From a virus (lineage: Duplodnaviria; Caudoviricetes): 64,000 bases of DNA. Below, piece by piece: positions 17,061-64,000 of this stretch. Under the pieces are notes generated by a model. That model worked only from the letters and a program-made list of their open reading frames with translations, was not told the origin of the DNA and made no database searches. A program made the translations under genes and the position numbers. The stretch is from IMG/VR virus record IMGVR_UViG_3300021376_000006. The stretch is one strand, 5' to 3'. How positions within the stretch are numbered: position 1 is the stretch's first letter; each line of letters begins with the position of its first letter.

Positions 17061-17065
17061 TTGCA

Positions 17066-17142: not shown

Positions 17143-17149
17143 ATAAAAC

Positions 17150-17225: not shown

Positions 17226-17227
17226 AA

Positions 17228-17512: not shown

Positions 17513-17520
17513 AATTTATA

Positions 17521-18390
17521 CTATAATTTACCTAAATTCACATTTGCAAAATCAAATGTGACTCTGTTCAATACTCGTTTGTTCATGCCTTCAAATTTCC
17601 AACGTTTATGAATACCCAACCACTGTTCGGCAATGACCACATCACCATCTTGCCAGTCGTGATGGTATATATATTTTTCTTGCAACACATGATCTCTTAG
17701 CGATTCTACAAGCTCACGACTTTGATCTTGTGTCATGCCAACAAAATTTCTAAATTGTAAAAAAGGAAAAAATAGTCCAGTTTGTTTACCTATATTGGTG
17801 TAGACCAGGTTAGGAGTGTAATGTTCATTAAAGTTTTCAGTAACCCCTGCTGCTTTACCAAAATCAAAATCACTGTAAGTGCCTTTTTTCCACCCACATA
17901 CCATCTTTAAATCTTTAATTTTATCAATCATTTGGTCATTAAGATCTTTGTAGGCCAAAATATTATTGGTCCAGCTGGTTCTTGAGCCGAACGTGGACTT
18001 GATACCACGCAACCATACCAATGGTTTACGATCGGGTTGAGCGGGTTGATTACAATGCCAGTCTAAATCGTCTACGTGTCCAAACAGTCCCGGTTCGCCA
18101 TGTTCATCAAGCTCACCTGTAACTCTTACCACTTTATAGTTAGTATCTTGAATAATTACATTTTTAAAAGGCGCTATGTCCTTAAGCGGAGTGAGGTCTT
18201 CTAACTCACCAAATCTACTGCATATATTTGCTTCATCTTGCGCTGTAAGATGATTTTGATTTTTGCATACCACTAAGGTATTTGTTGCCAACCAACGGGC
18301 AATTTGATTAATATCCGAATCTGACGCAGTTAAAAAATCAAAGTCATCTAAAATTACAGTCCATCCATTGTCATGTATTTTGTGTTTCAT
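17521..18390 (-). CDS. TauD/TfdA family dioxygenase-like protein
   Basis: LDWHCN, GSRTSW, HDWQDGDVVI, IHKR, LNRVT. Confidence 0.8.
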   Translation of the reverse strand: MKHKIHDNGWTVILDDFDFLTASDSDINQIARWLATNTLVVCKNQNHLTAQDEANICSRFGELEDLTPLKDIAPFKNVIIQDTNYKVVRVTGELDEHGEPGLFGHVDDLDWHCNQPAQPDRKPLVWLRGIKSTFGSRTSWTNNILAYKDLNDQMIDKIKDLKMVCGWKKGTYSDFDFGKAAGVTENFNEHYTPNLVYTNIGKQTGLFFPFLQFRNFVGMTQDQSRELVESLRDHVLQEKYIYHHDWQDGDVVIAEQWLGIHKRWKFEGMNKRVLNRVTFDFANVNLGKL

Positions 18391-18403
18391 AGTTTATCCA
18401 TAA

Positions 18404-18490
18404 TGGTGGGTGCTGATGGTAACGCTCCACGTGCCTTGACTTCCGTACCTTTAGCAATGGTTTTACAGACCACCGTACGGGGCAACACCC
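18404..18490 (-). tRNA. Atypical tRNA-like RNA, anticodon GTA, 8-bp acceptor, reduced D-arm
   Basis: GGGTGTTG/CAGCACCC-A-CCA; loop CTGTAAA; T-arm GTGG-AGCGTTA-CCAT. Confidence 0.65.
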
Positions 18491-18499
18491 ATTTAACAT

Positions 18500-18575
18500 T
18501 GGTGGAGATGACAGGACTCGAACCCGCTACCTATTGCTTGCAAAGCAACCGCTCTCCCAGCTGAGCTACATCCCC
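18500..18575 (-). tRNA. tRNA-Ala (TGC)
   Basis: GGGGATG acceptor with G3:U70, loop TTTGCAA, CCA. Confidence 0.95.
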
Positions 18576-20083
18576 AATATATATTTTCTACATTCTTCAA
18601 GTTCGGGTATATAATCACCCAACTTGCTGTTTCTTGCATGATCTAAAGCATCATTATACAAGAAAAAGTTTTTAAGTGCAACCAAATCGCACTCGGGTTT
18701 TTTGCTGTAATAATCGTATAATGAATCTATGGCTGTCTTATTTGATTTGCCATCTGTGTAATACGTTTTGGTTTGTTGACACTTGTTCATAGATTCAACT
18801 ACCATGTCATGATTGGGATGATTATACGCAGACTGAAAACCCACATGATTGATTTGCAAATAAATTCCAGCATGTGGAAATTCTTGGTCCAAGAATTCAA
18901 ATAACAAATGCAAATTTGTCACATTGTATATTCCTGGAACACAATTAATAGAAATAGTATGTCCATGTGATTCCAACAATTTGGTATTAGCAATCACAGT
19001 ATCCCAATCAGTACCCCAACGCCAATAATCATTGACTTGACCGTAGCCATCTAAACTGACACTGAAATTTAAATTTGTAAAGTGATTGGCCAAGGTCAAA
19101 AACTTTTTAGAAATTTTCACTGCATTTGTGCCCAAAGTAAAATCAAAATCAGTTTTACCTGCGTCAATACATTTCTGCATAAATTCATACACTTCGGGTA
19201 TTACAGTAGGTTCGCCTCCAGTAAGATATACTCTAACTTTTGGATTTAGAGTTTCTATGTCAATTCTGTCTAATTTGGAATACTTAAAGGTTTGCTCGCC
19301 TGGAAAAACTATATTAAATTTTTTAAATTCTCTATCAATCAAATGACTGTGTTCAGGTCTGCAACCGCGGCACATGATGTTACACTTGTTGCTCAATCTA
19401 ATTTCATAATAATACGGCTGTGTAATCTTCTCTAAATCTTCATAGGAATTTATATCCAGTTTTGCCAACCATTCTTTGGTTTCAAACTGCCTATAGCTTT
19501 CAATATTTTTGTCTTCGTAATAATAACAAGTCTCACAATTACTTTCTAATCTTTCTCCGCGAAGCATCTTTTCGCGCACTGCGACAAAATTAGGATCAGA
19601 TTTCCAATCAGTAAATTTGTCCCATGTGGTTACATGATCTCGCCCTCTTGAGCAGGTCAACATATAACCACTCTCTTCGGTAATTGCTATCCAAGGATAG
19701 ATACAAAAACTTTTGTTGTTTTCTATGCTGTTGAAAAATTCTAAAAAGTTTTTGACATTTTTGTTATTTCTAAAACTGGTATTATGACCCAATTTTTCTA
19801 ATTCCAACATAACCTTGTATGAAGATAGCAGCGGCTTCCAATGTGGCCATTGTTGTTTGGGTTGATCTAACAACACAATCAAATCAAATTGTTTTGCAAC
19901 GCTGACGATTTGTCCAAAAGACAAATCTAAAATACTGGTATGATAATACCCAGGTTCGGTTATTAAATCGTCGCTGGCGATCAGCCCGTTGTTTATACAC
20001 TTGTTTTGTTTGGCTAGAATTGTAGTTTTTTTATCTGTGTCATCAGAGTTAGTTCCGATGCACAATATTTTTTGATCAAACAT
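18566..20083 (-). CDS. Radical SAM protein with SPASM/twitch-like Cys cluster
   Basis: CNIMCRGC (CxxxCxxC), YLTGGEP, SVSLDG; upstream FCIYPW...C...CxxC. Confidence 0.88.
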   Translation of the reverse strand: MFDQKILCIGTNSDDTDKKTTILAKQNKCINNGLIASDDLITEPGYYHTSILDLSFGQIVSVAKQFDLIVLLDQPKQQWPHWKPLLSSYKVMLELEKLGHNTSFRNNKNVKNFLEFFNSIENNKSFCIYPWIAITEESGYMLTCSRGRDHVTTWDKFTDWKSDPNFVAVREKMLRGERLESNCETCYYYEDKNIESYRQFETKEWLAKLDINSYEDLEKITQPYYYEIRLSNKCNIMCRGCRPEHSHLIDREFKKFNIVFPGEQTFKYSKLDRIDIETLNPKVRVYLTGGEPTVIPEVYEFMQKCIDAGKTDFDFTLGTNAVKISKKFLTLANHFTNLNFSVSLDGYGQVNDYWRWGTDWDTVIANTKLLESHGHTISINCVPGIYNVTNLHLLFEFLDQEFPHAGIYLQINHVGFQSAYNHPNHDMVVESMNKCQQTKTYYTDGKSNKTAIDSLYDYYSKKPECDLVALKNFFLYNDALDHARNSKLGDYIPELEECRKYILGM

Positions 20084-20355
20084 TAATTTCCTAAATCTTT
20101 CGCATCAACACAAGTTCCGCCTTTAAAAACATATATGTCGGAATCTATGCGTATTTGTTCGAACACATGATTGTTTACACAGATATATGGATCCTTATGA
20201 TTTTCCATATAATAAAACGCACCATATCCTATACCCGCTAATACCATTAGTACGGGGATATATTTTAAATACTTCACAACTTCAGGCATAGCGCCTAAAA
20301 TTTGTGGCAAAAATTTGAGCAGGTCTTTCATGCTAGTATTTATTGGCACACCCAA
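20083..20355 (-). CDS. Small membrane protein
   Basis: One TM helix, two Cys in C-terminal part. Confidence 0.6.
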   Translation of the reverse strand: MGVPINTSMKDLLKFLPQILGAMPEVVKYLKYIPVLMVLAGIGYGAFYYMENHKDPYICVNNHVFEQIRIDSDIYVFKGGTCVDAKDLGN

Positions 20356-20419
20356 CCGGATTCGAACCGGTGTCGCCGCCGTGAAAGGGCGATGTCCTAG
20401 GCCTCTAGACGATGGGTGC
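20344..20419 (-). tRNA. tRNA-Glu (TTC)
   Basis: Loop CTTTCAC, CCA. Confidence 0.95.
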
Positions 20420-20421
20420 CT

Positions 20422-20583
20422 TTATTTTACTGCTCTACATTCTACTTGGATACGACTGTTTACTGCTCGTAATCTACGATCCCATGCCTGAGCAGATTCT
20501 GAAGATTTTTGCTGGGTGGCAAATTTTTCGTACACGGTAAAGTTTTCAGGGACTTGTATCCAGAATGCCAATATCCAAGGCAT
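20422..20583 (-). CDS. Small protein of two-Cys family (first Cys lost); start reassigned to MPWIL
   Basis: AGGAG RBS; hydrophobic N-term, FATQQKS...VEC. Confidence 0.55.
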   Translation of the reverse strand: MPWILAFWIQVPENFTVYEKFATQQKSSESAQAWDRRLRAVNSRIQVECRAVK

Positions 20584-20598
20584 AACAATCTCCTGTGA

Positions 20599-20673
20599 TG
20601 GTGCCTCTGGATGGAATCGAACCACCATCACAAGTTTCGTAGACTCGTATCCTATCCGTTGAACGACAGAGGC
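20599..20673 (-). tRNA. tRNA-Arg (ACG)
   Basis: Loop CTACGAA, CCA. Confidence 0.95.
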
Positions 20674-20675
20674 TG

Positions 20676-20834
20676 TATATTAGTAAGTGCTATAGGACCA
20701 ATTTAGACGTCCGGTGCTTCCGTGTCATAGCGTACAGTCGGTTATATCAGGACCTGTCCCACGCCGGTTAGGCCCGCATAGTGGCAGCGTCCTGCCACGA
20801 TACCCGCTTTTCATCTATAACACTTACTAATATA
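20676..20834 (-). ncRNA. Stem-clamped candidate ncRNA cassette
   Basis: 20-bp terminal inverted repeat (20676-20695/20815-20834); the only mismatch is G-U on the minus strand; GC-rich core. Confidence 0.6.
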
Positions 20835-21027
20835 TGCTTAGGCCACGCTTTTCCACGGTCGCCCCCAAGCTGGAGTTGTTGCCCTGTCCTTCCTGTTTAT
20901 TCTTCTGTCTGTGTGCAGTTAGGATTATGCCTATCAGAGTCTGAGGGCTTGCCTCGCTAACGGTCTTCTGCCACCGGATCTCTCTCGCTAATCAAACGCC
21001 ACTTTCAGGAAAGTGGTAACCGGAACC
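20835..21027 (-). ncRNA. Candidate structured ncRNA
   Basis: GC-rich, CCACTTTCCTGAAAGTGG hairpin; shares GGCAAGCCCTC and GGAAAAGCG with 15330-15500. Confidence 0.45.
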
Positions 21028-21291
21028 TTAACGAGCCCAAACAAGTGCAAACGCAACTGCTAGTCCGTTGTTAGCAAATCTATAAGTATCGCCTGAATCA
21101 AAATAATCATTGCCGCAGCGATATCCGTGATCCGAAAACCATTTTACAATAGCTTTATCTCTTTCTAACATTTTGTCGCGAACTTTTTATCTTGGAGCAC
21201 CAAATTCTGCTTCTTCTGCTTCCTTGACTAGATCAGCAAAAAATGGTTCACGATCTAACAAAACATTCAAATGAGGATATACTTGTTTCAC
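21028..21291 (-). pseudogene. 87-codon ORF with one in-frame TAA (21187-21189)
   Basis: GGAG RBS + GTG; MKQVYP...FGAPR*KVRDKMLERDK...YRFANNGLAVAFALVWAR. Confidence 0.5.
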
Positions 21292-21320
21292 GTGTACTCC
21301 TTGATCTACTATACGCAACT

Positions 21321-21444
21321 TTTATGAAACCGGAAATCAAATGCTAACAAGGAATTGCCTGTTACATGATACCGAAGGCAGTGCTGTATCAAACCCTTGC
21401 TTAACTCTATACAGAGACAGAACGCACATTTTCTGTTTTATAAA
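21321..21444 (-). ncRNA. Stem-clamped candidate ncRNA cassette
   Basis: TTTATGAAAC ... GTTTTATAAA, 9/10 inverted repeat. Confidence 0.35.
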
Positions 21445-21448
21445 CTGA

Positions 21449-21552
21449 TTATTTGTTAGTTGGTGCCCCTCAGTATCACCACCTTCCTAGGTTCCCGTGC
21501 GGGCTAGTTTGAGGTCAGTTATGTCTCACGAACAAGGTCGAATAACAAATAA
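21449..21552 (-). ncRNA. Stem-clamped candidate ncRNA cassette with internal ...GAGGGGCACCA
   Basis: Perfect 10-bp TTATTTGTTA/TAACAAATAA clamp. Confidence 0.45.
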
Positions 21553-21587
21553 AATTGTATAGTAGCACACTACTTCTTTTTGGTCTA

Positions 21588-21673
21588 CCATATTGAAACA
21601 CACTACCCTAGACAGCTACTTTGGGGCGGGCTGGCCGATACCGGGACACCGCTCGAAGTGTGCTTTAATATGG
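21588..21673 (-). ncRNA. Stem-clamped candidate ncRNA cassette fused to the CCA of tRNA-Leu
   Basis: CCATATTAAAGCACAC/GTGTGTTTCAATATGG 16-bp stem, GC-rich core. Confidence 0.55.
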
Positions 21674-21751
21674 TGCCCCAGGACGGACTCGAACCGTCAC
21701 CCGAAGACTGGCTTCTAAGACCAGCGTGTCTACCAGTTCCACCACCGGGGC
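21671..21751 (-). tRNA. tRNA-Leu (TAG)
   Basis: Loop CTTAGAA, variable arm, CCA. Confidence 0.93.
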
Positions 21752-21873
21752 ATTTGTTGTTAAATTTTTAATGATCGTTTACTGCACTATTTCATTATTA
21801 TACTTAATTGTTCTTTTTTGGTCAACTGTTTTATTATTGTTGCACAAATAGCAACTGTTGCTATTTTGTTAAC

Positions 21874-21948
21874 TGGTAGAAGCGGAGAGAGTTGAACCCG
21901 CACTGTACACCGTATGAAGGTGCTGCACTACCGTTATGCTACGCTTCC
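21874..21948 (-). tRNA. tRNA-Met elongator (CAT)
   Basis: Loop TTCATAC, CCA. Confidence 0.85.
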
Positions 21949-21949
21949 G

Positions 21950-22023
21950 TGATACCCGGAGGTGGGAACGATCCACTGTCGGTCGATTATCAATCGACTG
22001 CTCTACCACTGAGATATCCGGGT
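21950..22023 (-). tRNA. tRNA-Ile (GAT), encoded 3' end TCA
   Basis: Loop TTGATAA, variant T-loop ATCGTTC. Confidence 0.85.
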
Positions 22024-22033
22024 ATACAAACTT

Positions 22034-22108
22034 TGGCCGGTCCTGACAGATTCGAACTGCCGACAGCTGGTTTCGAAGACCAGAACTCTTCCACTGAGCT
22101 AAGGACCG
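22034..22108 (-). tRNA. tRNA-Arg (TCG)
   Basis: Loop CTTCGAA, CCA. Confidence 0.92.
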
Positions 22109-22875
22109 TATAAAAAATTGTTTACTCGTGCTGCAATATTTTTTTGAGTATTTTTCTTTGGTTCTGCTAACTCTGCGCCAAAATCAAGATTACGGTCATC
22201 AACTGTGTAAGTTTTGCGTAAATCTGTACAATCAATGTATTCATTAAGAAAATTCTCAAACTCAACATGATTGTTTTCACGGCACTGCCCAAATCTCACA
22301 ACAGCATAATCAATATTGTAGTTCTTTAATATTTTAATCAACAACTTAAAACTACGTCTATGAAACCGTGCATGCCACTTTCTGTCACGCAAAAAAGTTT
22401 TTTGCAGTGTTTCTTGTCTCAGTTTTTCTAGTGTTGGGTCTGAATTTGTCACGGTCAATGATTCAAAGTGATGTTTACGTCCTTGATACATTACAGAATA
22501 CGATAAGTGTGAAAATTCATAATCTGTAACTAATACTAAATCAGGCCTATTGTTAATTCTTAACCAATTAATCAATCTTCTACAATGACCAAAAAAATGT
22601 GCGCCGTTAAAAGATAAATTTGTTACATACCCGTTTATCATACTAGGCCAAGCCAATGACATTTCTTTGTGACGTACAAATTTCCATGCTTTAGATTCAA
22701 GAGAATCCAAATGTCCAACAAAATCATTTTGTTTTAAGCACCATTGTAGTGCAGGTTTAATTTGTTTATGATATCTTAAACTGAAAGTTCTAGGTTGTGT
22801 GTCGCCCATAATTTCATCAGACAAACAGTTATTGCCATTACTTTGGCAATCACCTAGTATCAAAATAGTTTTCAT
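22099..22875 (-). CDS. Hypothetical protein, weak SGNH-like N-terminus
   Basis: ILILGDCQSNG; late promoter TATAAATA at 22883-22890. Confidence 0.6.
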   Translation of the reverse strand: MKTILILGDCQSNGNNCLSDEIMGDTQPRTFSLRYHKQIKPALQWCLKQNDFVGHLDSLESKAWKFVRHKEMSLAWPSMINGYVTNLSFNGAHFFGHCRRLINWLRINNRPDLVLVTDYEFSHLSYSVMYQGRKHHFESLTVTNSDPTLEKLRQETLQKTFLRDRKWHARFHRRSFKLLIKILKNYNIDYAVVRFGQCRENNHVEFENFLNEYIDCTDLRKTYTVDDRNLDFGAELAEPKKNTQKNIAARVNNFLYGP

Positions 22876-22921
22876 GATTGAATATTTATAGAAATGTTAA
22901 ATTGCGCCAATAAATATCATC

Positions 22922-23437
22922 ATGTATTACACCAAAGTTCATATTGATAATCTTGAACAACTTCAACAATCAATATTAGATAAATTACCACCAGAAGCAC
23001 TGACTACTCATGGAGTTCTGCCAATGTGGTCTCAGCAGCTGATGCAGTTTGATGAGATAAAAAACATTATTCAAGAACTTGGTCTTGAATCTACTGCTTA
23101 CTGCGTTTGTATTGTCACAATGCAGCCTTGGTCAGAATTTCCAGTCCACATAGACAGCGGAAAAAGCCAGGCAGCGTTAAACATTCCTTTAGCAAATTGC
23201 AATAATACATTTACTCATTGGTACCAAAGTACACAGCCATTGATAGAATATCAACATCACGGTGATGGCAAATATTTAGGTGCTGATAAAAATCTATGCA
23301 CCAGAGTTGCTAGTTTAGAAATGACTGAACCTCATTTTATCAATATTGGTGCTTTACATAATGTTGATAACCCTAATAACAGTTGGCGTATACTTTTATC
23401 AATACGTCTTACCGATTACAACTTTAATTCACAATAA
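22922..23437 (+). CDS. 2OG-Fe(II)/cupin-type oxygenase (Asp/Asn hydroxylase-like)
   Basis: PVHIDSG, ALNIPL, LHNVDN, WRILLSIR; AATAAATA at 22909-22916. Confidence 0.65.
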   Translation: MYYTKVHIDNLEQLQQSILDKLPPEALTTHGVLPMWSQQLMQFDEIKNIIQELGLESTAYCVCIVTMQPWSEFPVHIDSGKSQAALNIPLANCNNTFTHWYQSTQPLIEYQHHGDGKYLGADKNLCTRVASLEMTEPHFINIGALHNVDNPNNSWRILLSIRLTDYNFNSQ

Positions 23438-23442
23438 TTTTG

Positions 23443-23518
23443 TGGTGCCAACTCTTGGGATCGAACCAGGTTCCATGCGTCTTCAGCGCACCGCAATGAC
23501 CACATTTGCTAAGTTGGC
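23443..23518 (-). tRNA. tRNA-Phe (GAA)
   Basis: Loop CTGAAGA, CCA. Confidence 0.92.
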
Positions 23519-23519
23519 T

Positions 23520-23594
23520 TGGGGTATCCGACCGGGATCGAACCGGTAATACAAGATCCACAATCTTGGGTGTTACCTCTACACTACGGACACC
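23520..23594 (-). tRNA. tRNA-His (GTG)
   Basis: Loop TTGTGGA, G-1:C73, CCA. Confidence 0.93.
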
Positions 23595-23600
23595 ATTTAA

Positions 23601-23675
23601 TGGTAGGGGATGAGGGATTCGAACCCCCGAATGACGGAATCAAAATCCGCTGTCTTACCACTTGACGAATCCCCA
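23601..23675 (-). tRNA. tRNA-Gln (TTG)
   Basis: Loop TTTTGAT, CCA. Confidence 0.93.
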
Positions 23676-23676
23676 A

Positions 23677-23826
23677 TTAACTTGGTATTACTTTTGGAAT
23701 GTATGGTACGTTCCTGGGCCCATGGCGCTGTTCAAACAACACGCGAGCTTCTTGCAAATCCTTTGCGTACACACGATCTTTAGTGTCACCTTGCGGTGTT
23801 CTTACTGTAGTTTCATACATTGGCAT
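23677..23826 (-). CDS. Hypothetical protein (49 aa, not in track)
   Basis: AAGGAG RBS; MPMYETTVRTPQGDTKDRVYAKDLQEARVLFEQRHG. Confidence 0.65.
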   Translation of the reverse strand: MPMYETTVRTPQGDTKDRVYAKDLQEARVLFEQRHGPRNVPYIPKVIPS

Positions 23827-23923
23827 ATCAATCTCCTTCAATCATATAGAAACACACTCAATACTATTATACGCCTGTGCCGTTTGAGTAAGCCATTAAT
23901 GTATAAGCGAATTTGTTTTCGTA

Positions 23924-23998
23924 TGGTAGGGGCACCAGGACTCGAACCTGGATAGATCGGTTAAAAGCCGACTATTCTAGCCTTTGAATTATACCCCC
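23924..23998 (-). tRNA. tRNA-Lys (TTT)
   Basis: Loop CTTTTAA, CCA. Confidence 0.95.
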
Positions 23999-24207
23999 AT
24001 TCTTACACCGTACAGTTGCCACATCATCGCTGCGAGCCGATGCTTGTTTTAAAATGTATAACCGTATCTTAATAAACCTATCTTATCACTCTTGTCACTA
24101 TCCATAACAGGATCTCCTATTTAAAATTTCTTTCTAACCACACCAACATACCAATAATGAATAATAATACAGTCACAGCCCCATTTTAGTCAACCTTTCA
24201 TAGTTAG

Positions 24208-24281
24208 TGGAGCGGGTAGCGAGAATCGAACTCGCAAATAATCCTTGGCAAGGATTCAGGTTACCTTTACATCATACCCGC
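24208..24281 (-). tRNA. tRNA-Gly (GCC)
   Basis: Loop TTGCCAA, CCA. Confidence 0.95.
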
Positions 24282-36407: not shown

Positions 36408-36454
36408 GTGTTTAATCCAATAATGATTATCACAGTATTTAGTTCAATTTTGAC

Positions 36455-36830
36455 ATCCAGCCACTTCTGTTACCGAGCAGGCTGGGTCCATCTCTGAGTC
36501 TTAGTTTAGCTTAGGCAGCTAAACGAACCTCAAACAGCTCATCATTGGCTGCATTTATGGTTTTGCTTCTTTTACGGAGATCGCCTACCGTGTTGTCCAT
36601 ATCCTTACTTATTGCCCTGTCGAAACCAAATTCAGGCCCATCAAAAAGCATTTTCAAGGTGTCCCTCTCCGATACAACGAGGAATCGCTAACCTTGTCTG
36701 CCTTCCCCACTCTTATCAGCTTCCTCATACTTACCGTGGTGGGTCGTTATATCATCGGGCAAAATGCTTTTTGGTGGACCTGCCCGGGGTCGAACCGGGG
36801 TCCAGAACACCTTTCATTCAACTTCATACA
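36455..36830 (-). ncRNA. ssrA: Circularly permuted (two-piece) tmRNA
   Basis: Acceptor piece ...GGTTCGACCCCGGGCAGGTCCACCA (CCA 36772-36774) precedes coding piece GGGCCTG..GGTTTCGAC (from 36639); tag AANDELFEVRLAA* at 36552-36511; outer ends approximate. Confidence 0.9.
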
Positions 36831-36960
36831 ACAATTTTAATCTTTATTTTCTTTGACCCATTTGTAATAGATCAGTACGCATGCTAGTGTTATGGAACCT
36901 ATTAATAATACGCCCAATAAAAAACCAACTATAAAGTAAAGCTGCTCGGTTCCAATTTAC

Positions 36961-45717: not shown

Positions 45718-46083
45718 TTAAATTGCTATACGTTGTTGTCCGGCACGCCGCATTTCGCCGCGCATGATTGTTTTCATTACCAATGTGTCATTTATTTTGG
45801 CAACAGGCACTGTGATATCTGTTTCTAAATCAACCACATGAATTGCTACACCTTCGGGTAAATCTTTTAAAAATTTATGCCTTTTCAACAACAGCTTGCT
45901 AAAAAAATCTGCAACCTCGGCAATGCCGATAGGTTCGGTGTTTCTGGGATCGTTAATACGATCAACAAAATGTGTGGTAATTTTTACCGGTATATTGTAT
46001 GGTACGTATCTGGTGTTTAACACCTGGGTATAGTGCTTGGCCAGTTCAGCGTTGTTTTCTGTGAGAAATTCTTGCAAACGCAT
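45718..46083 (-). CDS. Putative internal head protein (CTS-like N-terminus)
   Basis: MRLQEFLTE; HFVDRINDPRN. Confidence 0.6.
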   Translation of the reverse strand: MRLQEFLTENNAELAKHYTQVLNTRYVPYNIPVKITTHFVDRINDPRNTEPIGIAEVADFFSKLLLKRHKFLKDLPEGVAIHVVDLETDITVPVAKINDTLVMKTIMRGEMRRAGQQRIAI

Positions 46084-48200
46084 TATGTTTTAATAATGAA
46101 GTTGATAGCCAGGTACGGAGGTAAGTTTTGATTTGTGCCGCTGACACCTGCAGAGTTTATTGTTACGCCGGTGCTGGCATAATCAGTCCAATTATAAAAA
46201 CTAGCATCTGTACCGGCGTCTGGACCTTCCCCAATCCATGGTTCATTTGGTCTAGCTTGATTAGGGGTGTTGCTAAGAACGGTGGTACTAGTTGGATTGC
46301 GTTCCCATGCTGCCGGTACCTCTGGGTCACCAGCATTAAGATAATCATTTATACCATAAAACAGAGCCCCACTCACAGGATCTCTTAATTGATGACGATG
46401 TGTAGGATCAGTGGTATTGTGACTGTGACTTACCACTACTGCATCTTTTGTGCCACCTGTGTTACCTATAGCATACAATGTGCCTGCGCCAACTGGCATT
46501 CTATTTCTGTAATCGGGCAGGTTAAATGTATTAACTCCGTCTCCGTTGCCAAAGGTGCTGCCAAGTATGGCAAACAATGCAGCATAGGTGGTTCTTGACA
46601 CTGCAAGGCCATTGCATAACAAGAATCCTGTAGGTGCAGACACTGTGGGCCACATCATCAAGCTGCCAGTAGGTACACTGTTGTTTTGTACAAAAGCAGT
46701 TGTAGCAACTGCGGTGTTAGATGTTCCCGGAGGCATAGTAGGAGTAAATATTTGTCCTCCTACGTGTAAATTTCCACCAAGACCTATACCTCCAGTAACA
46801 ACCAATGCACCGGTTGATGTTGATATAGCTGCTCTCGACGAACCTACAACTAGGTTGCCAGTCACTGCTAAATTTGCCGCGACCGAAGAATTGCCCGATA
46901 CAGTTAAATTGCCGCCCACTGAAGCAGTTAAACCAACATCCAATCTACCAGTTAAAGATACTGAATTGGCATGCATGGTATTCAACCGCATTCCTTGACT
47001 ACCAACATTTGAACTGATATTGGCGGTTGGGATCAAATCAGCACCCAAGTATATTGTTGCCACATTACTAACAGTAACAAAAGTATTTGCAGCATTTACA
47101 TTGCCTACTAAAATACTTTCTGAAAAAATGTTTTTAAAACGGTTAGTTGTATTTCCTAAGGTAAAAGTTACGTTTGCACTTGGGATAATATGGCCAAAGA
47201 AATTAGCAGTACCATTAACTAAACCCGACAGAATATCTACGTAATTTTTTGTAGCAAAAGTCAAAGCCGGAGATGAATTTGTTGGTTGTGCATATGCTTC
47301 GGCTAATCCTGTTTGATAATTGCCTCGTAAAAACGGTGTTTGCGTTCCGCCTGTTTTGAGACTTAATATAAAGTCGCGATTGTTAGTTTGATTGTGCAGC
47401 GTGACTGTGCCGCTAGTGACATTTGCAACAAAATCACTGGCTGCACCAAAAGTCAGGCCACCATCGTTTGTCAATGATAAAGATCCGTTAATAGATCCTG
47501 ACATGTTATTTCTTACGAATGTGTTACCAAACACAGCAACGTTGTTTACATATATAGATTGGGCAACTTCACTGTTACCCCAGAAAGTGTGTCCCAGTGT
47601 GCTGTTGAGATTGAGTCCCTTTTTTATAGTAGCAAAACCAGCTGTATCAGATGCAAAAGGACCGTCTTTGCTCCAGATACCCACTAATATATTGTCGATA
47701 AAAAATTTAATTACAACATAGGTAGTTGACGGTGGGGCATCTGTTACTGTGTCCGGGATAGCCCCTGAATTACCAGTGGCAAGTCTTGACAGAGGTCCTA
47801 CCAAGCGCCATTCAGTACCTGTATATATTTTAAGCTGTCCATTTGTAGTATCATACCACTGTTCACCAGTGTATGAGTTGGTCGGAGTTGATGCACTCAG
47901 AGTCATACCAGCCAAGGTTTTCCAAATGGCGTTGCCCGAGCCTTTAGTAGCAGCAACGTTAACACTTAAAAGTTTTGTAGTGCTGTTAAACCATAACTGT
48001 CCAGGAATAGGTGCAGACGGTTCTGTGGTTTTGGCAAAGTTTTCCATGAGTCTTACAAAGTTTTGATTTAAGAATAAACCATAACCTTTGTAATTTTTTC
48101 CTAATAGAACCAAGCTGGTATTGGCACTATCTGCGGTATTATCCAGCAAACCGCCCGCAATTAGATCTTCTCCGTTACTTAATGTAATATTATATGGCAT
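46083..48200 (-). CDS. Tail fibre/baseplate protein with phage tail collar domain
   Basis: N-term NFVRLMENFA...GQLWFN; C-term PTGSLMMW...GFLLCNG.AVSRTTYAALF...FNLPD. Confidence 0.85.
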   Translation of the reverse strand: MPYNITLSNGEDLIAGGLLDNTADSANTSLVLLGKNYKGYGLFLNQNFVRLMENFAKTTEPSAPIPGQLWFNSTTKLLSVNVAATKGSGNAIWKTLAGMTLSASTPTNSYTGEQWYDTTNGQLKIYTGTEWRLVGPLSRLATGNSGAIPDTVTDAPPSTTYVVIKFFIDNILVGIWSKDGPFASDTAGFATIKKGLNLNSTLGHTFWGNSEVAQSIYVNNVAVFGNTFVRNNMSGSINGSLSLTNDGGLTFGAASDFVANVTSGTVTLHNQTNNRDFILSLKTGGTQTPFLRGNYQTGLAEAYAQPTNSSPALTFATKNYVDILSGLVNGTANFFGHIIPSANVTFTLGNTTNRFKNIFSESILVGNVNAANTFVTVSNVATIYLGADLIPTANISSNVGSQGMRLNTMHANSVSLTGRLDVGLTASVGGNLTVSGNSSVAANLAVTGNLVVGSSRAAISTSTGALVVTGGIGLGGNLHVGGQIFTPTMPPGTSNTAVATTAFVQNNSVPTGSLMMWPTVSAPTGFLLCNGLAVSRTTYAALFAILGSTFGNGDGVNTFNLPDYRNRMPVGAGTLYAIGNTGGTKDAVVVSHSHNTTDPTHRHQLRDPVSGALFYGINDYLNAGDPEVPAAWERNPTSTTVLSNTPNQARPNEPWIGEGPDAGTDASFYNWTDYASTGVTINSAGVSGTNQNLPPYLAINFIIKT

Positions 48201-48251
48201 TTTTTGTTCTCACACCCTTTATTTATGCTATTTTTACTGGGTATCAAGCAG

Positions 48252-50360
48252 TTACTTTTTACGCCCACTTTTCATATTTGCACACCAGTGGTACATTCGA
48301 CCACGCTCACCACCGGATTTTTTAGCTTTTTGACGCAAACTGGTCACTGATCCTGAACAACTAGCACCGGCACGTTTGACTCTACCCGGACGACTTTGGC
48401 CCTTGACTTTGCCATCGGCAAAGTTTTCATCTATTTGTTGGTTTAAAAACTGTTGTACAGCTTGCAAATGATCGCTGCCAGCTACGTATACACCTTGTTT
48501 TCTTGAGGCCAAAAACTTATCACGCAGGTCGTTAACAGACTTAGCCACACGACCCGCCCGGTTAGGATATTCTGCCCAGTTGTTGGGCCACATCAGTCGT
48601 TCGCCTAGCTCAAAAAACTGTCGCACATTGCGTTCTGTGGCTGGTGCTTGACTCATTCTAACAAAGTCATATTCACCTTCACTCACAGCCTGTAAAAACT
48701 TTGTCAGCGTTTCAGCATCAAACTTTCTGTCAGGGAAATAGTTGGTGCTGGGTTGTGTGCCGAGTATGCGATTAAAAATAGACACACTGGGGTCCGACCC
48801 AATCTTACCTTTTACAGTATCATTTTCTTTTATGTTAGAGAACAGAACATATAAGAATGCGGCCGGATAACCTTTGATTTTGTGCGATAGCAAATCATCA
48901 TCCCAACTACCTTGATAGCTATCAATGATTCCCGCAGTAAGTTTGCGATCCATACCGTTGCCCTCGTACCAGGCGCCGTGCTGTTTGGCAATTGCCTTTA
49001 CTCGTTCGGTATCAGAATCTGATAACTGTAACCGCTTGCCGTGTTCTTGTCCGACAATAGCAGTATCATTGCCTATGAAAAGCACCCGGCTGGTTTTGGC
49101 TTCTGTAACAGATTCTCCGCCGCCTCCATCACCTCCACTATCACCAGATTCCGAACCGTGAGCACCACTGCCGTAATAACCATAGCCAGGATACCAATAA
49201 CCGCCAAAATACCTGTTGCGGCGTCGACGCTTTTTGCCTTCCGCCATGTCTTGTTTGTTTTTGATATGACTGTATACCCGGCGTAGTTGTTCTGCGTCAA
49301 GATCGTCAAGATGCTTGTGCCCAGTGAGTTTTTCTGTCATACGCAAGAAACTGGGTTCATTGTCCCAGGCTATGCCACGACGGTTAGCAAGATCGTGTAT
49401 CATCTTCTTGGTTATTTTGCCTTCCGTCACACCCGGCTTCAATCGTGTCAGTTCATACACCACTTGATCGCCATGGTCTTCACTGTAGTCATCATAGCCC
49501 CATGCGGCCGCATATCTTTGAACCAACCTGTCATATAATTTTGCTCTACTCTCACTGTTTTGTCCCGGATCAACATCTTTTTTGGCTGAAAAAATCAAAC
49601 GCCATGGTTCGTGTTCTTTGACGAATTTTTGTATGGCATTTAAAACCGTGGCAAATATTCTTTGTGCATCACCTTCACCAGTAATTTCTTGACTGTTGTT
49701 TCTATAAAACTCAACTTGCCATTCGTTGTTCCCTTCGTGATTGAACATGATGCTTAGGTACTTACCATCCGGCAATCGTACTAATGTGTCGTAATCGCCA
49801 AACTCACTTTTCTGCTCGATTTCATGTGGGTAGGGCTGATTAAACGCTTCGTCTAGATCATCCTGGTATTCAGGATTACGAGCAAGTTTAACCGCTCTCT
49901 TATTACCTAACACCCCAGGATTGAACCATACTGTACTTTCAACATCCCAAGCTCGCATTATGGTGTCTTGCCAATTATTCTCTGCAGTATAATGTACAGC
50001 ATCATAGTCCTGGCCAATTGCTGCCCAAGGCATTTTGGTCAGCAACTCTATAGGATTCTTAAATTGTGCCCCGTATTGTTGTGCAACAGCAACAGCATCA
50101 CGGTCTGACCTGATAGTTAGTATCTTTGCCGCGGGAGCGACATCAAACAAAAATCCTGTATCTCCAATCCATTCGGGCATTTCTGCATCACACCAACGCA
50201 CCCATTCGCTGGTTATTCCTTCAGGAGTTTTGATAGCGGTGCTGGTCCATACTTTGACTTGTGGCTTTAATCCTAAGGACTCATTGACAGTGTTAGGATG
50301 CGGTGCATATAGCTGTGTGCCTAATCCTGCTGCCTCGGTTATAAACTCGTAAGCTCTCAT
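48252..50360 (-). CDS. Modular putative internal head polyprotein
   Basis: [10 protein letters not shown]-term; unrelated modules each starting after (L/V/I/M)xE. Confidence 0.65.
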
Positions 50361-51645: not shown

Positions 51646-51800
51646 GCCTATATTTATCAGAAATAGCGTTTGTAATTAGTTCAAACCAATCACTCCTTTA
51701 CCCCAGTGCATCTGGTACTAATTTTTGTGTAAAATATATGTAAAACATATGGCCATACCCAGCACTAAAAATATCATGGCTTTTTTTAATTCACTCATTG

Positions 51801-59397: not shown

Positions 59398-60078
59398 CTA
59401 CAAATTTCTTTCCCAGATCACAAAAGGATCATTGACCACAATAGTGCCGTCGGGTCTGGCCATGTAATTGCCACTATGTAGATCCACTGAAAAATTGTGT
59501 TTGCGAGCAAATCTTGAAACTTCGTATACTGTCTTTAGTAGGCCATCTGCTCGTTCGGGCCCACCCAATAGGTCAATGACTTCTTGTACATCTTCAAAAT
59601 ACTTGGGATTGTAACCTGGTGAGTAATAATCTTCGGCACTGGCAAACTCAGCATAACTTTTTATTTTGTTATACGCTGCTTGTAAATTGCCTCGGCCTAT
59701 CTGTTTGGTCACTTGATCAATCTGTGCTACTAAATCTCTAACAGTGTTGGGTAATTCTTCTAGTGTTTCCATTCTGGCCTGAATATATCTTTTACCTTGA
59801 AATTCAAAACTTTCAAATCCTGAGAATCTGGGCAAGTGCGGATTGTTGCGATGCTTGTTGCAATAGTTAATCCAATCGACAAACATTCGTTGATCGGGAC
59901 TGAAATCTTGTACACCTTTACGATAACCAAACACAATATACACTTGACCGTTGGGTTCTAAATATGCATGTTTGTCTATACCACCGCCTAAATAAGTATA
60001 ACCTTTATCTGCTAATACATTTGAGATGCCTCTATGTATTGATCCGGCCATTTCTGTGGTGAAGTCCGCTGCTCTCAT
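59398..60078 (-). CDS. Protein-kinase-like fold protein with CTS-like N-terminus
   Basis: MRAADFTTE; LGGGIDKHAY (Gly loop), METL, DLHSGN, VVNDP. Confidence 0.7.
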   Translation of the reverse strand: MRAADFTTEMAGSIHRGISNVLADKGYTYLGGGIDKHAYLEPNGQVYIVFGYRKGVQDFSPDQRMFVDWINYCNKHRNNPHLPRFSGFESFEFQGKRYIQARMETLEELPNTVRDLVAQIDQVTKQIGRGNLQAAYNKIKSYAEFASAEDYYSPGYNPKYFEDVQEVIDLLGGPERADGLLKTVYEVSRFARKHNFSVDLHSGNYMARPDGTIVVNDPFVIWERNL

Positions 60079-62597
60079 CTTGCCGGCACCACCATAAATT
60101 CTCCACTGCCTAATAGGCCGTTCTGTCTCAACCAATTGGCTGCATACTGATTGGCTTCGCCTTGATTGCTACGACCAACGAAACTGTAAACTTCACGGTC
60201 GTTACGATCTAATACCAACCAGCGTGTATTACCTGGTGGTAGGCTTTCTGTGCCTTGTACCTGTTGTCTTGCCTGCATTCTTGGTCTGACATAGATAGGA
60301 TCATCAAATCCAGTTTGCTGTTGCCATCTGGCTGCATGTCTTTCAGCATCTGCTACCGCATTACCAATACCACTAACCACACCGACAACCTCGCCGGTGT
60401 TTCTACTGACGAATTCCCAAACTCCGGTAAACTCTTGATCACGGCTGGGTGTGGATCCTATATCCACAGTCTCTGGTGGATCTGGCAGTCTTGACCTTGC
60501 TACAGGTTCGGCTTCAATTCTATAAACCGTATATCCGGCCCGTTGTAAATTAGTTCTCATTACATCCACGGCAGCATCTGCATTACGGGCTGGAACAGTA
60601 ACAGCGTCATTTCTAACTTCGCCGTCGTAGGTCGCTGTGTAAGACACTCTAAAATTCTGTACTTGCGTCTGACCAGGTGGTTCTCTCCCTACAGGTTCAG
60701 GTTCGCCTAGTCTTGCTCTCACCGTAGAGGGCATTGTTTCTCTGCCGGTGTAGTCAGGATCAAGAGCCACGTTGATATCTTCGCTGGCCGCGTTGGCAAA
60801 TATGTCAGGGTGTCTTCGCATGGCCACTTGTTTGGCTTGAAACTCACTCATGGCTTTTACATATACATATACACCTTGCGAATTTCCTTCAACATACACA
60901 CGATAAAACTTATCACTTAACTCGTTCATATCTGCCGTAGTAGCAGCTCGTAAGGGCTGTGCCCGCCAACCATGTTCTTGTGCCCATTCTTCTATGCTAT
61001 AACTACCAATGCTCAATTGCCATTTTTTAATGGCTTCTACAAATGCATCCAACTGAGTCTTGCCTATCACTTCCGTGCCTTGACTTTGATATGGACTCGA
61101 AGCACTGCCGGTAACTTTCCAGACCAATAATATATCTTTGGCACCTTTGGTAAGTTTTTCAACACCACGCTTGCCCTGTATCTGTCTAACAAATGCTTTT
61201 AATGCGCTTTGTGGCAATTCGCCTGCTGCATATTTTGCAAAGTATTGAATAGTATCGTTGTCTTGGCCTTGTGATAGTGTTTTGTATAACTTTTTGTAGT
61301 ATTCTTGTTTGAATTCCTCGGGCTTGGTGGCCACATCTAAGGCCACTACTGCACGCAACATAGTGTTCTTTACATCGTCAAGATTGTCTCGTCCCAACCA
61401 GTCGCCGCCGGGACTACGGAATTCAACCCAATCACCTCTGTTGTTGATACTCGAATATTTTTGTGTTTCGCCGGTGTGCAAGATCTTGCTGGCAATATCA
61501 CTTAGTCCATTTTGAAACTGACGCATCATTTCAGACACACGCTCAGGCTCATTACGGCCTTTTTGTATGATATTTTTCAATATGCTTTTGCAGTAGGTGT
61601 TGCCTTCACGGCCAAATTGTTCTAGAATGTAGTTGTCTCCTAAGAACATGGCCAATTTAACAAAGTCTAATTTGTCTTGGTTAGGCACACTCACATTCAT
61701 ATGCAGTCCGGTACTGCTGTTGGTATATGCACCTGTGCGTTCGGCCCATTGAGCCACAGAATCAATGTCATCTAACATTTCTGATATAGTTAATGGAGGG
61801 CTAACAAATTCTAATCCGCCATCACCGGGTTCGTCGCCGTGTAGGCTTGAATCAGGTTCCACTACATAATGTCCTGGTCGTCTAGTGGCACCGTGATAAC
61901 TAGAGCTGGCATTCACAGGACGACCAATGGCATTGCTAAAATCGCCGGCAACATCGTCGATACTGACACTGCCCCTTCTACCACCGTAATCTGGTTCAGT
62001 CCAGTATGGCCATTCTAAATTATATTCATTGCCAAAGTCAGACATTGAATTGATACCTTGCCGATCTAACCATTCTTCAAACTTTGAGTCAAGGTCTTCG
62101 TTGTATTCGTCAATTATTTGATCGCGTATGCTATCTTGGTTTTCATCAAGATAATCTTCCAAAGCTTTTCTTAGTTCCTCAGGAGAATCGTAATCATCTT
62201 GATTGATATTATCAAGAGCTATTTCTCGTGCTCTTGCTACTCCGTCGGCCGAGTTTATAAAATTACCTTGATCTTCGTCGACCCAGGTGTAAAAATCATC
62301 ATTCAAGTTATCAATGGCTCTTTGTATTTCTCTTGTGCTGCTGCCCATTTCGCCGCCACGGAAGAAATCCATGATATCTCTTGTCCAACCTTGCCCGGTA
62401 GGAAACCTTTCGTCGGCATCGTAGTCAGGTTCTGATTCAAATTCATCTTCGTCATCTGTATCTGCGTTGGGTACAATCAATTCAAATTCCATGCCCACTC
62501 TGGCATCAATATTCTTGGACATCTTGGCCAGATTGCCTGGGCTCATATTGAGCTCAAACAATTCATCTTCGGTCAGTTCAAATTCTCTGGCTCTCAT
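60075..62597 (-). CDS. Putative amidoligase (COOH-NH2 ligase-like) multidomain protein with CTS-like N-terminus
   Basis: MRAREFELTE; VGMEFE, EPDSSL, GLEFVSPP, STGLHMNVS, KYSSIN, EFRSPGG. Confidence 0.7.
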   Translation of the reverse strand: MRAREFELTEDELFELNMSPGNLAKMSKNIDARVGMEFELIVPNADTDDEDEFESEPDYDADERFPTGQGWTRDIMDFFRGGEMGSSTREIQRAIDNLNDDFYTWVDEDQGNFINSADGVARAREIALDNINQDDYDSPEELRKALEDYLDENQDSIRDQIIDEYNEDLDSKFEEWLDRQGINSMSDFGNEYNLEWPYWTEPDYGGRRGSVSIDDVAGDFSNAIGRPVNASSSYHGATRRPGHYVVEPDSSLHGDEPGDGGLEFVSPPLTISEMLDDIDSVAQWAERTGAYTNSSTGLHMNVSVPNQDKLDFVKLAMFLGDNYILEQFGREGNTYCKSILKNIIQKGRNEPERVSEMMRQFQNGLSDIASKILHTGETQKYSSINNRGDWVEFRSPGGDWLGRDNLDDVKNTMLRAVVALDVATKPEEFKQEYYKKLYKTLSQGQDNDTIQYFAKYAAGELPQSALKAFVRQIQGKRGVEKLTKGAKDILLVWKVTGSASSPYQSQGTEVIGKTQLDAFVEAIKKWQLSIGSYSIEEWAQEHGWRAQPLRAATTADMNELSDKFYRVYVEGNSQGVYVYVKAMSEFQAKQVAMRRHPDIFANAASEDINVALDPDYTGRETMPSTVRARLGEPEPVGREPPGQTQVQNFRVSYTATYDGEVRNDAVTVPARNADAAVDVMRTNLQRAGYTVYRIEAEPVARSRLPDPPETVDIGSTPSRDQEFTGVWEFVSRNTGEVVGVVSGIGNAVADAERHAARWQQQTGFDDPIYVRPRMQARQQVQGTESLPPGNTRWLVLDRNDREVYSFVGRSNQGEANQYAANWLRQNGLLGSGEFMVVPAR

Positions 62598-63838
62598 TCA
62601 ATGATCTCCGGATTGTCTTTGCCATACAATTTCATAAGGTAGCCGGCCACTGCATCTGCTTCCTGTTCAATGGGAGATCCTGGATATGCTTGATCACCGT
62701 GTACTCTATTGTCTTCGTGTTGTTTTCTATGCACCAATTCATGTGCCACAGTACGCATGATATCAATCAAATTCCTATTACCAGTGTATACCCACATGAT
62801 GTCATCATTGTCGTCGTAGTATCCGGTTCTGTGTTGATCTGGACCTTCTTTGGCATCTTGGAATCTAATTCGTGGTAATTCTTGTTCAATGTTCAATTTA
62901 CGCACACACCATTGGATAAAATCACGCAGTTGATCTTCGTGTTCTTGATAGGTGCTTTCATTTAATGACAATAAATTATAATCCTGTTCAATTTTAGTCA
63001 AGCAAAATATTGCATCATCCACAGTGGCACCTACTCTATACATAAAATCTGGACCTGTATCAAAATAGGGACGACCATCTTCAATGCTGCCTTGTTTGAC
63101 TAGAACATCGCTATTAGTAATTGGAACGAACATAATCGCATCTAGTGTATTTTCATCTCTTTTTCTGGTGCATCCAAAACCGCCTTTTAGATTTGGAAGT
63201 GGTTTAGTCTTGAATCCTAACTTTGCTAGTTCAGTGGTTATGATTTTCCGAAACTTAAAAAAATCACCTGATGGTGTTGATTCTGACCCATCGTCATCAC
63301 CAGCCGGGCCTACAAATTCTTTTAAAGATTTATCGCCATCACCAGTTACTGATTTTTTTTGTATCAAGTGACTGCGGTGTAGATCATTGTTGGCTCCTAA
63401 TTTTTGAGCAATGTGTTGCCAGGCTCCGCCGCTGGCATCATCTTGTACAGTCAATGTTCTTACCGTGGGTTGATCTCTAAATTGATCTTCGAGCCTTTTA
63501 TAAATTTCATCGAGCATCTTGGTTACGATGCCAGAAAATTTGCCTGCATGAGCATCCAATACATTGATTACTAGTTCGGGTAAATCATATCCAACACTGA
63601 CTTGTAAGTAGAAGTGACCCTTGGGATCTGCTAGGCCATCATAATATTCTTGATTCTTGACATACTGACGCTTGGTGCTGGCAAACACAGGATTGTATCC
63701 ATAACTGTCGCCGGTGTACAATCTTGCCTTTGGATAGGCCGAGGACCATACATTCTCAATTATCCGTTTAACTATACCTGTGCTGTATTCTCCAGCAGTT
63801 TGTTCGGTATTTTCAGTTATAAAATCTCTAGCTCGCAT
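62594..63838 (-). CDS. Modular putative head protein with C-terminal HExxH metallopeptidase-like domain
   Basis: MRARDFITE; TVAHELVHRKQ...EQEADAVAG. Confidence 0.7.
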   Translation of the reverse strand: MRARDFITENTEQTAGEYSTGIVKRIIENVWSSAYPKARLYTGDSYGYNPVFASTKRQYVKNQEYYDGLADPKGHFYLQVSVGYDLPELVINVLDAHAGKFSGIVTKMLDEIYKRLEDQFRDQPTVRTLTVQDDASGGAWQHIAQKLGANNDLHRSHLIQKKSVTGDGDKSLKEFVGPAGDDDGSESTPSGDFFKFRKIITTELAKLGFKTKPLPNLKGGFGCTRKRDENTLDAIMFVPITNSDVLVKQGSIEDGRPYFDTGPDFMYRVGATVDDAIFCLTKIEQDYNLLSLNESTYQEHEDQLRDFIQWCVRKLNIEQELPRIRFQDAKEGPDQHRTGYYDDNDDIMWVYTGNRNLIDIMRTVAHELVHRKQHEDNRVHGDQAYPGSPIEQEADAVAGYLMKLYGKDNPEIIE

Positions 63839-64000
63839 CTTTGTTGTCCTGTGGTCCGGCAATCATTCGACCACGGTCCCGGCTCTGTATGTTTTGTGGC
63901 GTATGCTCACGCCGACCTTTGACAATTTCAAAAGCTCTACGCAATCCCTTCGCAACCACGTCTAAGCTATCTTCATCGGCTTGATACTTGATACCAATTC
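63828..64000 (-). CDS. 3' end of a CDS entering from the right (possibly HAD 5'-deoxyribonucleotidase-like)
   Basis: IGIKYQADEDSLDVV...DNKDAS*. Confidence 0.45.
   Translation of the reverse strand, partial: IGIKYQADEDSLDVVAKGLRRAFEIVKGRREHTPQNIQSRDRGRMIAGPQDNKDAS

Follow-up and report, generated by a model that had tools for sequence, protein, structure and literature searches.

Five leader genes and the modular 702-aa protein

The window analyzed here, a stretch of 64,000 nucleotides from the IMG/VR virus record IMGVR_UViG_3300021376_000006 (Duplodnaviria; Caudoviricetes), is a piece of an uncultured jumbo phage from a lake, and its genes lie nearly all on the minus strand. Five of these genes begin with a leader of about ten residues that has aromatic or hydrophobic targeting residues and an L/I-x-E-type end, resembling the capsid-targeting sequence (CTS) of phage T4. 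Our main subject is one of the five, which encodes a protein of 702 amino acids in which the leader precedes six modules joined at hydrophobic-x-Glu triplets.

A preliminary description of the window had quoted the five N-termini and their common motif, and all of them were found as stated. The genes are real, but the positions assigned to them were the low ends of minus-strand genes and not their starts. The starts are at 46083 (121 aa), 50360 (702 aa), 60078 (226 aa), 62597 (840 aa) and 63838 (414 aa), all on the minus strand. The listing of open reading frames (ORFs) lengthens two of the five genes to an upstream TTG; in independent metagenome calls, the start of the 226-aa gene is the MRA codon.

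A strict pattern for the leader, MRxx[ED]Fx{1,2}TE, had five matches in the approximately 128,000 six-frame residues of the window. All five were at gene heads on one strand, 1-31 residues past the upstream stop, so the contribution of chance is negligible. Relatives were obtained by a search of 5.8 billion proteins, which yielded about 1000 metagenomic sequences, those of lakes among them; the contigs that carry them reach 368 kb. Among 149 relatives, 84 begin with M[RK]xx[ED][FILVM]xxE (consensus M-R-A-x-[ED]-F-[ILV]-x-E), and related jumbo contigs carry 3-6 strict leader copies each, compared to 0-1 with a reversed-pattern control. The codons spelling the leader vary among the five copies in the window and among relatives while the peptide stays, indicating that conservation is at the level of the protein and not of a DNA or RNA element.

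The 10-residue CTS of T4, MKTYQEFIAE, is sufficient for loading into the prohead (PMC8442874). Within it, positions 4 and 7 are important for targeting and positions 8 and 10 for processing; the protease gp21 cuts after L/I-x-E (PMC9026906). The likeness of the leader to this sequence, as noted in the preliminary description, held up on comparison: it retains the Phe, a P3 residue of the I/L/V type and the P1 Glu.

The 702-aa protein is made up of the 9-aa leader and modules M1 to M6, as listed here (pLDDT, predicted local distance difference test, is the confidence score of the structural models).

50334..50360, minus strand: leader MRAYEFITE (residues 1-9); pLDDT <50 at residues 1-5
49848..50333, minus strand: module M1 (10-171), ART/RES-superfamily-like (ART, ADP-ribosyltransferase); ends ...DDLDE171; stand-alone leader plus M1 in P0153-P0156 and L002:7124-7693
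49422..49847, minus strand: module M2 (172-313), DUF6934-like, with a GNAT-like fold; ends ...KPGVTE313; weak Pfam DUF6934 match
49239..49421, minus strand: module M3 (314-374), small and basic; ends ...QDMAE374
49101..49238, minus strand: module M4 (375-420), a Lys/Arg run and then a Gly/Tyr-rich segment, predicted disordered; ends ...ESVTE420; pLDDT <50 throughout
48426..49100, minus strand: module M5 (421-645), a folded domain with two invariant GxxH motifs; ends ...NQQIDE645
48255..48425, minus strand: module M6 (646-702), a very basic C-terminal tail that starts NFADGK; pI 11.4, 16 K+R, 2 Cys, 1 His

The junction triplets are LDE171, VTE313, MAE374, VTE420 and IDE645. In BLAST alignments to 120-149 relatives, the breakpoints fall in clusters at 166-171, 313-316, 369-376, 416-427 and 641-645, that is, at the triplets, which argues that these are true module borders. 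The module starts that had been read from the five triplets alone therefore match the breakpoint clusters. M3 had no separate homologs among the matches, and its N-terminal border is set solely by the end of M2 homology. The other modules are unrelated units with separate sets of homologs and folds.

Junction statistics were calculated over every distinct sequence context of M2, M4 and M6 in the 149 relatives. The residue preceding the module was Glu in 178 of 178 distinct contexts (M2, 77/77; M4, 20/20; M6, 81/81), against a background of 6.2%. The triplet [LIVM]xE preceded M2 in 95% of contexts, M4 in 100% (all [LIV]xE) and M6 in 85%, against a background of 1.7%, and the sequence farther upstream varied freely. 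The L/I-x-E-type rule proposed earlier for the joints is followed far beyond chance in these contexts. M2 and M4 stand directly behind the 9-residue leader in 18 and 8 contexts, respectively, so the last Glu of the leader is also the junction Glu. M4, for example, is found behind the leader at the head of a 112-aa gene at L003:14638-14976. Each module tested was directly behind a leader in some relative, and genes made up of a leader and one module exist for M1 and for the HExxH module of the 414-aa protein. Shuffling of modules, which the preliminary description had predicted, was seen across the approximately 1000 metagenomic relatives, where the partner domains are GNAT, nucleotidyltransferase, Cu-SOD (SOD, superoxide dismutase), NUDIX, deaminase, GH19 lysozyme, M23, ParB and HD/RelA.

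P0087, a metagenomic polyprotein of 1005 aa, has a whole leader inside it at residue ~460 (..MAGAMRAKEFITE then AFDQPY..), as if two leader genes had fused recently. Neighboring leader genes in the window overlap by 4 nt. Given these two observations, fusion and fission of adjacent leader genes is the likely source of the polyproteins, as judged from sequence. Only the hydrophobic-x-Glu end of the leader persists at the inner joints, which is the best sequence argument that the triplet is functional.

We built AlphaFold2 models on per-module alignments, one of M1 and one of residues 366-702. The M1 domain was modeled confidently (mean pLDDT 81), except at residues 1-5 and around LDE171 (166-175), where confidence was low. 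In the second model, M4 was disordered, M5 was confident (pLDDT mostly 75-98, model residues ~58-277) and M6 was a helical tail, with a dip in confidence at model residues 278-292, around IDE645. The modeled joints M1|M2, M4|M5 and M5|M6 are thus in low-confidence stretches (pLDDT mostly <50) and are probably exposed linkers; MAE374 falls within the disordered region at the N-terminal end of the second model.

Structure comparison of M1 by VIA-align placed ART or RES proteins in 20 of the 21 top rows. The best was MbcT (Z 7.3, root-mean-square deviation 4.7, 131 residues aligned), followed by a diphtheria-toxin homolog (Z 6.4), NatT (6.3), ParT (5.9) and then PARPs. Against AFDB clusters, M1 matched uncharacterized proteins at E 1e-7, and also DUF3990; rows named ART-PolyVal-like and 'large polyvalent protein associated' had E values of 5e-3 to 8e-3. 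In the M1 alignment, the motifs WTST and WDVEST are invariant and His21 is mostly conserved. An ART-superfamily fold is therefore the probable prediction for M1, the best Z of 7.3 being below the level of a safe match. Foldseek against the PDB gave no match at E <= 0.001 for either model (best E for M1, 0.02).

M2 belongs to the virus-dominated DUF6934 family, and the atlas DUF6934 clusters have template-modeling (TM) scores of 0.55-0.59 to GNATs. Homologs of M2 are found after LTE in KVP40-like Vibrio phages, an example being ORF252 of Vibrio phage nt-1. In that phage (L001, 1922-3432), ORF253 starts with MIEFLTE, and the DUF6934-like module of the adjoining ORF252 comes right after LTE. From these sequences, KVP40-like phages may use the same joint logic. 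The alignment of M5 (A6, 50 sequences) has invariant G72/H75, E101 and G263/H266. Comparison of M5 with AFDB gave many weak TraB/GumN/ChaN rows (E 0.02-0.4, TM <0.3), and a separate structure comparison gave a Z of 4.2 for ChaN, so that membership in the TraB/GumN/ChaN (Tiki) superfamily is possible and is best used as a lead only. Pfam at E <= 1 had no match for M1, M3, M5, modules A and B of the 414-aa protein or the 121-aa protein; no Pfam polyvalent-domain model was above its cut-off, and a search of NCBIfam profiles found no match.

The four other leader genes in the window are the following.

45718..46083, minus strand: 121-aa gene, leader MRLQEFLTE and one module of unknown function; directly after the tail-fiber gene; PHROG 14518 and 23027 (both function unknown)
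59398..60078, minus strand: 226-aa gene, leader MRAADFTTE and a T7 gp0.7-kinase-like module (phrog_15752, E 5e-8)
60075..62597, minus strand: 840-aa gene, leader MRAREFELTE(DELFE), Amidoligase_2 (Pfam PF12224, 39.2 bits versus a cut-off of 22, residues 213-360) and small C-terminal repeats
62594..63838, minus strand: 414-aa gene, leader MRARDFITE and modules A (10-174) and B (175-294), with a putative border at LKE174, and C (295-414, HExxH zincin-like; weak, sub-threshold DUF3920 and Peptidase_M78 matches)

The LNE junction reported earlier for the 414-aa protein, LNE294, proved to be a border: a leader protein that stands alone is homologous from precisely this Glu onward, with 90% identity from E294/S295 in the 414-aa protein and E9/S10 in the relative. 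In L003 and L004, module C is the only module after a leader; in L002:2570-3571 it follows another module, to which it is fused via IKE|ST. In the 226-aa protein, homology to L002:7829-8731 begins at E9/M10, corresponding to E90/M91 in L002, where it follows an extra module. This protein had no tblastn match in cultured phages and only a chance-level Pfam match (E 0.11) for its body. Leader-bearing homologs of the 121-aa protein are at L003:17068-17436 and L005:17080-17448, and the homologs of the 840-aa protein in L002-L006 bear the same leader. The earlier characterization of these products as strings of unrelated modules thus applies to the 702-aa and 414-aa proteins, but not to the 121-aa and 226-aa proteins, which are a leader with one module, or to the 840-aa protein, which looks like one enzyme with C-terminal repeats.

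A block with partial synteny to window positions 59398-64000 is present in the 368-kb JGI relative (L002:2570-11812). It has eight consecutive genes starting MR..., six of them with the full leader, and includes a GH19 lysozyme, a nucleotidyltransferase-like protein and a stand-alone M1.

Head protease and virion homologs in related phages

We compared five near-complete IMG/VR contigs of 285-525 kb that carry M2. Both Peptidase_S77 above the Pfam cut-off and Gp23 were found in four of the five, and the gene order in those four is acidic core protein, protease, scaffold, capsid, which is the T4 order 68-21-22-23. The profile of the relatives' protease matches the structure of T4 gp21 (5JBL, E 1.8e-16). 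The capsid protein of the relatives matches T4 gp23 and has LxE sites in the N-terminal propeptide region. There are more than 580 related protease loci in metagenomes; one is on a contig of the JGI series Ga01941xx, a series that also holds contigs with an identical 702-aa protein. The small IMG/VR relatives are fragments and are without gp21.

On related jumbo contigs (L087-L090), the prohead protease of the relatives starts with MALYLKE and then H, and the scaffold proteins end with ..RLAGL. It is possible that the first is a self-processing motif and the second a docking motif.

Three cultured jumbo phages, Atu_ph07, RsoM2USA and SCTP-2, encode homologs of the amidoligase portion of the 840-aa protein. 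Atu_ph07 carries 16 T4 core proteins. Its homolog, AUZ94978.1 (30% identity, E 3e-23), has a computed mass of 57.93 kDa and is encoded two genes before the portal gene; the mass and the position identify it as gp196. Gp196 was detected in purified Atu_ph07 virions by electrospray ionization tandem mass spectrometry (57.94 kDa, 14 unique peptides, 30.2% coverage) and was most abundant in gel band 2, among proteins of ~60-120 kDa (PMC6102473 Table S5). This shows that the amidoligase family resides in the virions of a T4-related jumbo phage, its processing state being a separate matter. A hydrophobic-x-E triplet lies just before the conserved L(K/N)M start of the amidoligase body in all three proteins compared: LTE in Atu_ph07, LSE in RsoM2USA_26 and LFE15 in the window protein. 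The DNA pattern of the leader was not enriched in cultured Atu_ph07, RsoM2USA or nt-1, so that the published proteomes cover no leader-bearing protein.

Explanations of the leader and the joints

The best explanation of these results, to which we give a probability of roughly 60%, is T4-type capsid targeting with prohead-protease processing, extended to shufflable polyproteins. The 9-10-residue leader would act as a T4-type CTS, docking the protein on the scaffolding core during prohead assembly, and a prohead serine protease of the T4 gp21 type would remove it after its final Glu. In the 702-aa and 414-aa proteins, the same protease would cut after every hydrophobic-x-Glu joint. These cuts would free separate folded enzymes (ART/RES-like, GNAT-like, possibly Tiki/TraB-like, and HExxH zincin-like) and also the very basic peptides M4 and M6. 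The pieces would remain with the packed DNA, and at least some would enter the host with it; the internal proteins (IPs) and Alt of T4 are ejected (PMC8442874, PMC9026906, PMC3012670). Polyproteins would form and split by fusion and fission of neighboring leader genes, the leader then decaying to a minimal cut site. That the 702-aa gene adjoins a tail-fiber gene was counted in favor of a cargo role. The preliminary description had proposed injected polyproteins. This proposal is supported in part, by the likeness of the leader, the L/I-x-E joints, the shuffling, the gp21-type protease in relatives and the virion homolog. Cleavage, packaging of these particular proteins, their ejection and an anti-defense role are plausible by analogy.

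Several observations weigh against this explanation. The virion evidence concerns a protein with a different N-terminus (MRWQDISSKKLTE) and not the MRAxEFxxE leader, and the position of gp196 in gel band 2 argues against heavy internal cutting of that family. The invariant Glu could in part be a conserved first residue of the module rather than a cut site. The gp21-type protease is seen in the sequences of related contigs and is a presumption for this phage itself, and one relative that is near-complete by CheckV, G006 (IMGVR_UViG_3300032268_000986, 342,865 bp), has no match to the Gp23 or Peptidase_S77 hidden Markov models. A protein search of G006 with the relatives' capsid protein also gives no match; G006 has three leader genes and a 1378-aa open frame that holds the 840-aa homolog. 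There was no late-promoter signal above chance, the T4 late boxes TATAAATA and ATAAATA occurring in the window no more often than in shuffled sequence. The fold assignments are middling (best Z 7.3), and a fold does not imply activity.

Some of these points would fit a reading in which the leader sends the proteins into the head and at most the leader is removed, with the chains staying whole as polyvalent effectors and the Glu joints being relics of fusion. Polyvalent proteins have been proposed to be packaged, some of them being delivered unprocessed (Iyer et al. 2017, PMC5512222), and the 57.9-kDa gp196 of Atu_ph07 runs with proteins of ~60-120 kDa. The relict leader in P0087 likewise shows that joints derive from fused leaders. 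Relic joints, however, should decay at P3 and P1, yet all 178 contexts have the Glu and 85-100% have [LIVM] at P3. Moreover, the joints lie in probably exposed, low-confidence linkers, where a co-resident protease specific for L/I-x-E would be expected to cut. We regard whole-chain delivery as unlikely. The joints might also be cut by a protease that the cargo carries, either the HExxH zincin-like module or M5 with its possible Tiki/TraB-like fold, or by a host protease, perhaps after injection. For polyvalent proteins, such autoprocessing by a zincin-like metallopeptidase (MPTase) has been proposed (PMC5512222); here, an HExxH module closes the 414-aa protein, and M5 has its invariant GxxH pair and weak TraB/ChaN matches. 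But many relatives have Glu joints with neither M5 nor a zincin in the same protein, and the joint motif is that of gp21-type specificity, an enzyme found in four of the five related genomes. The same motif ends the leader, where gp21 cuts in T4. Processing by the cargo or the host is in our judgment very improbable, the least probable of the alternatives weighed here.

A different objection concerns the leader itself, which might be no capsid address but a translation or stability element, a tag for another location or for a chaperone, or a recombination linker, its likeness to the CTS being coincidental. Its absence from the cultured T4-like jumbo phages checked would be in keeping with this, as would the scattering of leader genes among metabolic genes as well as beside the tail-fiber gene and the presence of leaders in G006, where gp21 and Gp23 were not detected. 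What is conserved is amino acids and not nucleotides, which speaks against a recombination site or an element acting as RNA or DNA, and the leader is without signal-peptide character. A start-of-gene signal would not explain why the last three leader residues recur at module borders, and the conserved positions are those important in the T4 CTS. We consider a role other than capsid targeting improbable, ranking it between the two alternatives above.

Comparison with described systems shows both likenesses and differences. IPI, IPII, IPIII and Alt of T4 also have a leader of about ten residues with a Phe and an I/L-x-E end, one kind of leader standing before diverse, unrelated bodies; Alt, a head-packaged ADP-ribosyltransferase, is a counterpart of the ART-like M1, and the gp21-type protease has its counterpart in the related genomes. 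The T4 proteins, however, are single bodies cut once (Alt at both ends), whereas up to six modules are encoded per gene here, with the cut-site motif at every joint. The modules here are shuffled over approximately 1000 relatives, have no homology to the bodies of the T4 IPs and are known from sequence alone. Polyvalent proteins combine two to fifteen unrelated effector-type domains, comparable to six modules in the 702-aa protein and three in the 414-aa protein. They share with the proteins described here the presence of several unrelated conflict-type domains in one chain (here predicted as ART-like, GNAT-like and zincin-like peptidase, with nucleotidyltransferase and NUDIX in relatives). 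They differ in that processing, if any, is proposed to be by their own MPTase, in having no CTS-type leader and no uniform Glu joints, and in often being far larger; here, processing is predicted to be by the head protease, with a cut site for each module.

In phiKZ-like phages, many head proteins are cut after S/A-x-E and some are ejected (PMC9026906). Thus phiKZ, 201phi2-1 and SPN3US resemble the present case in having many head-loaded proteins and a diverged gp21 homolog (gp175/gp245-type) that cuts after Glu. They differ in the S/A-x-E motif, longer propeptides, the lack of a common 9-mer, their chimallivirus lineage and the lack of described polyproteins of unrelated enzymes. Gp196 of Atu_ph07 shares the amidoligase body and the hydrophobic-x-E before it with the 840-aa protein, and differs in its N-terminus and in being without the C-terminal repeats. 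A survey of head-packaged NAD-utilizing enzymes in myoviruses (PMC9503650) covers module types like those found here. This survey and the work on polyvalent proteins (PMC5512222) cover injected multi-domain effectors, and neither describes a CTS leader or uniform protease joints. Our literature search found no description of CTS-led polyproteins, and a form of the T4-type CTS/gp21 system with shufflable polyproteins appears, from the sequences, to be undescribed in the literature searched.

We tentatively propose, at somewhat less than even odds, a more general reading: that in a large clade of T4-like jumbo phages, uncultured and from fresh water, the head protease serves for polyprotein processing. 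In this clade, the address peptide and the three-residue joint would make up a shufflable cargo cassette. The capsid would deliver a changeable set of enzymes (ART-like, GNAT-like, kinase-like, amidoligase, nucleotidyltransferase, NUDIX, SOD and lysozyme) together with small, basic Cys/His peptides that may be DNA counter-ions, and fusion and fission would be the evolutionary engine.

Proteolytic processing of polyproteins is a hallmark of RNA viruses. If the proposal is true, tailed phages too use it, for an arsenal of injected enzymes. Black's laboratory reportedly engineered an 'expression-packaging-processing' system in T4, of which the phages described here would be a natural and far more elaborate counterpart. 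The leader and the hydrophobic-x-Glu joint rule would then predict the virion cargo of hundreds of uncultured jumbo phages, and dozens of unknown modules would become candidates for early-acting host-modifying or counter-defense functions. Natural leaders and joints would also be usable for loading several proteins into phage capsids.

Other genes and signals in the window

Two further genes border on the leader genes.

46083..48200, minus strand: tail-collar fiber gene, between the 702-aa and 121-aa leader genes (Pfam Collar E 1.8e-21; tail PHROGs)
63828..64000, minus strand: C-terminal end of one more upstream gene, truncated by the edge of the window; the homologous part is fused to the HExxH module in L002:2570-3571

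Scans for sigma-70 promoters and terminators found no meaningful excess over shuffled sequences in the window. Two occurrences of ATAAATA on the minus strand are recorded for their positions, neither being evidence by itself. One, at 48220-48226, is 20 nt before the start of the tail-fiber gene. The other, at 51651-51657, is upstream of a co-oriented run of small ORFs, a PaaA-like gene and the 702-aa gene.

The window also has 26 tRNA genes and one tmRNA gene (tmRNA tag AANDELFEVRLAA), in an array at 11961-24281 and 36420-36864, all on the minus strand. Other genes include a DnaE-like polymerase fragment, PstS, an ATP-dependent ligase, radical-SAM genes and a block of redox genes. A 183-aa Fe/Mn-SOD-like gene at 5236-5787 on the minus strand starts with MRDLISLTE, followed by EKKK. 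This start resembles a looser leader with an L-T-E end, outside the strict regular expression, and the SOD-like protein may be a further cargo candidate.

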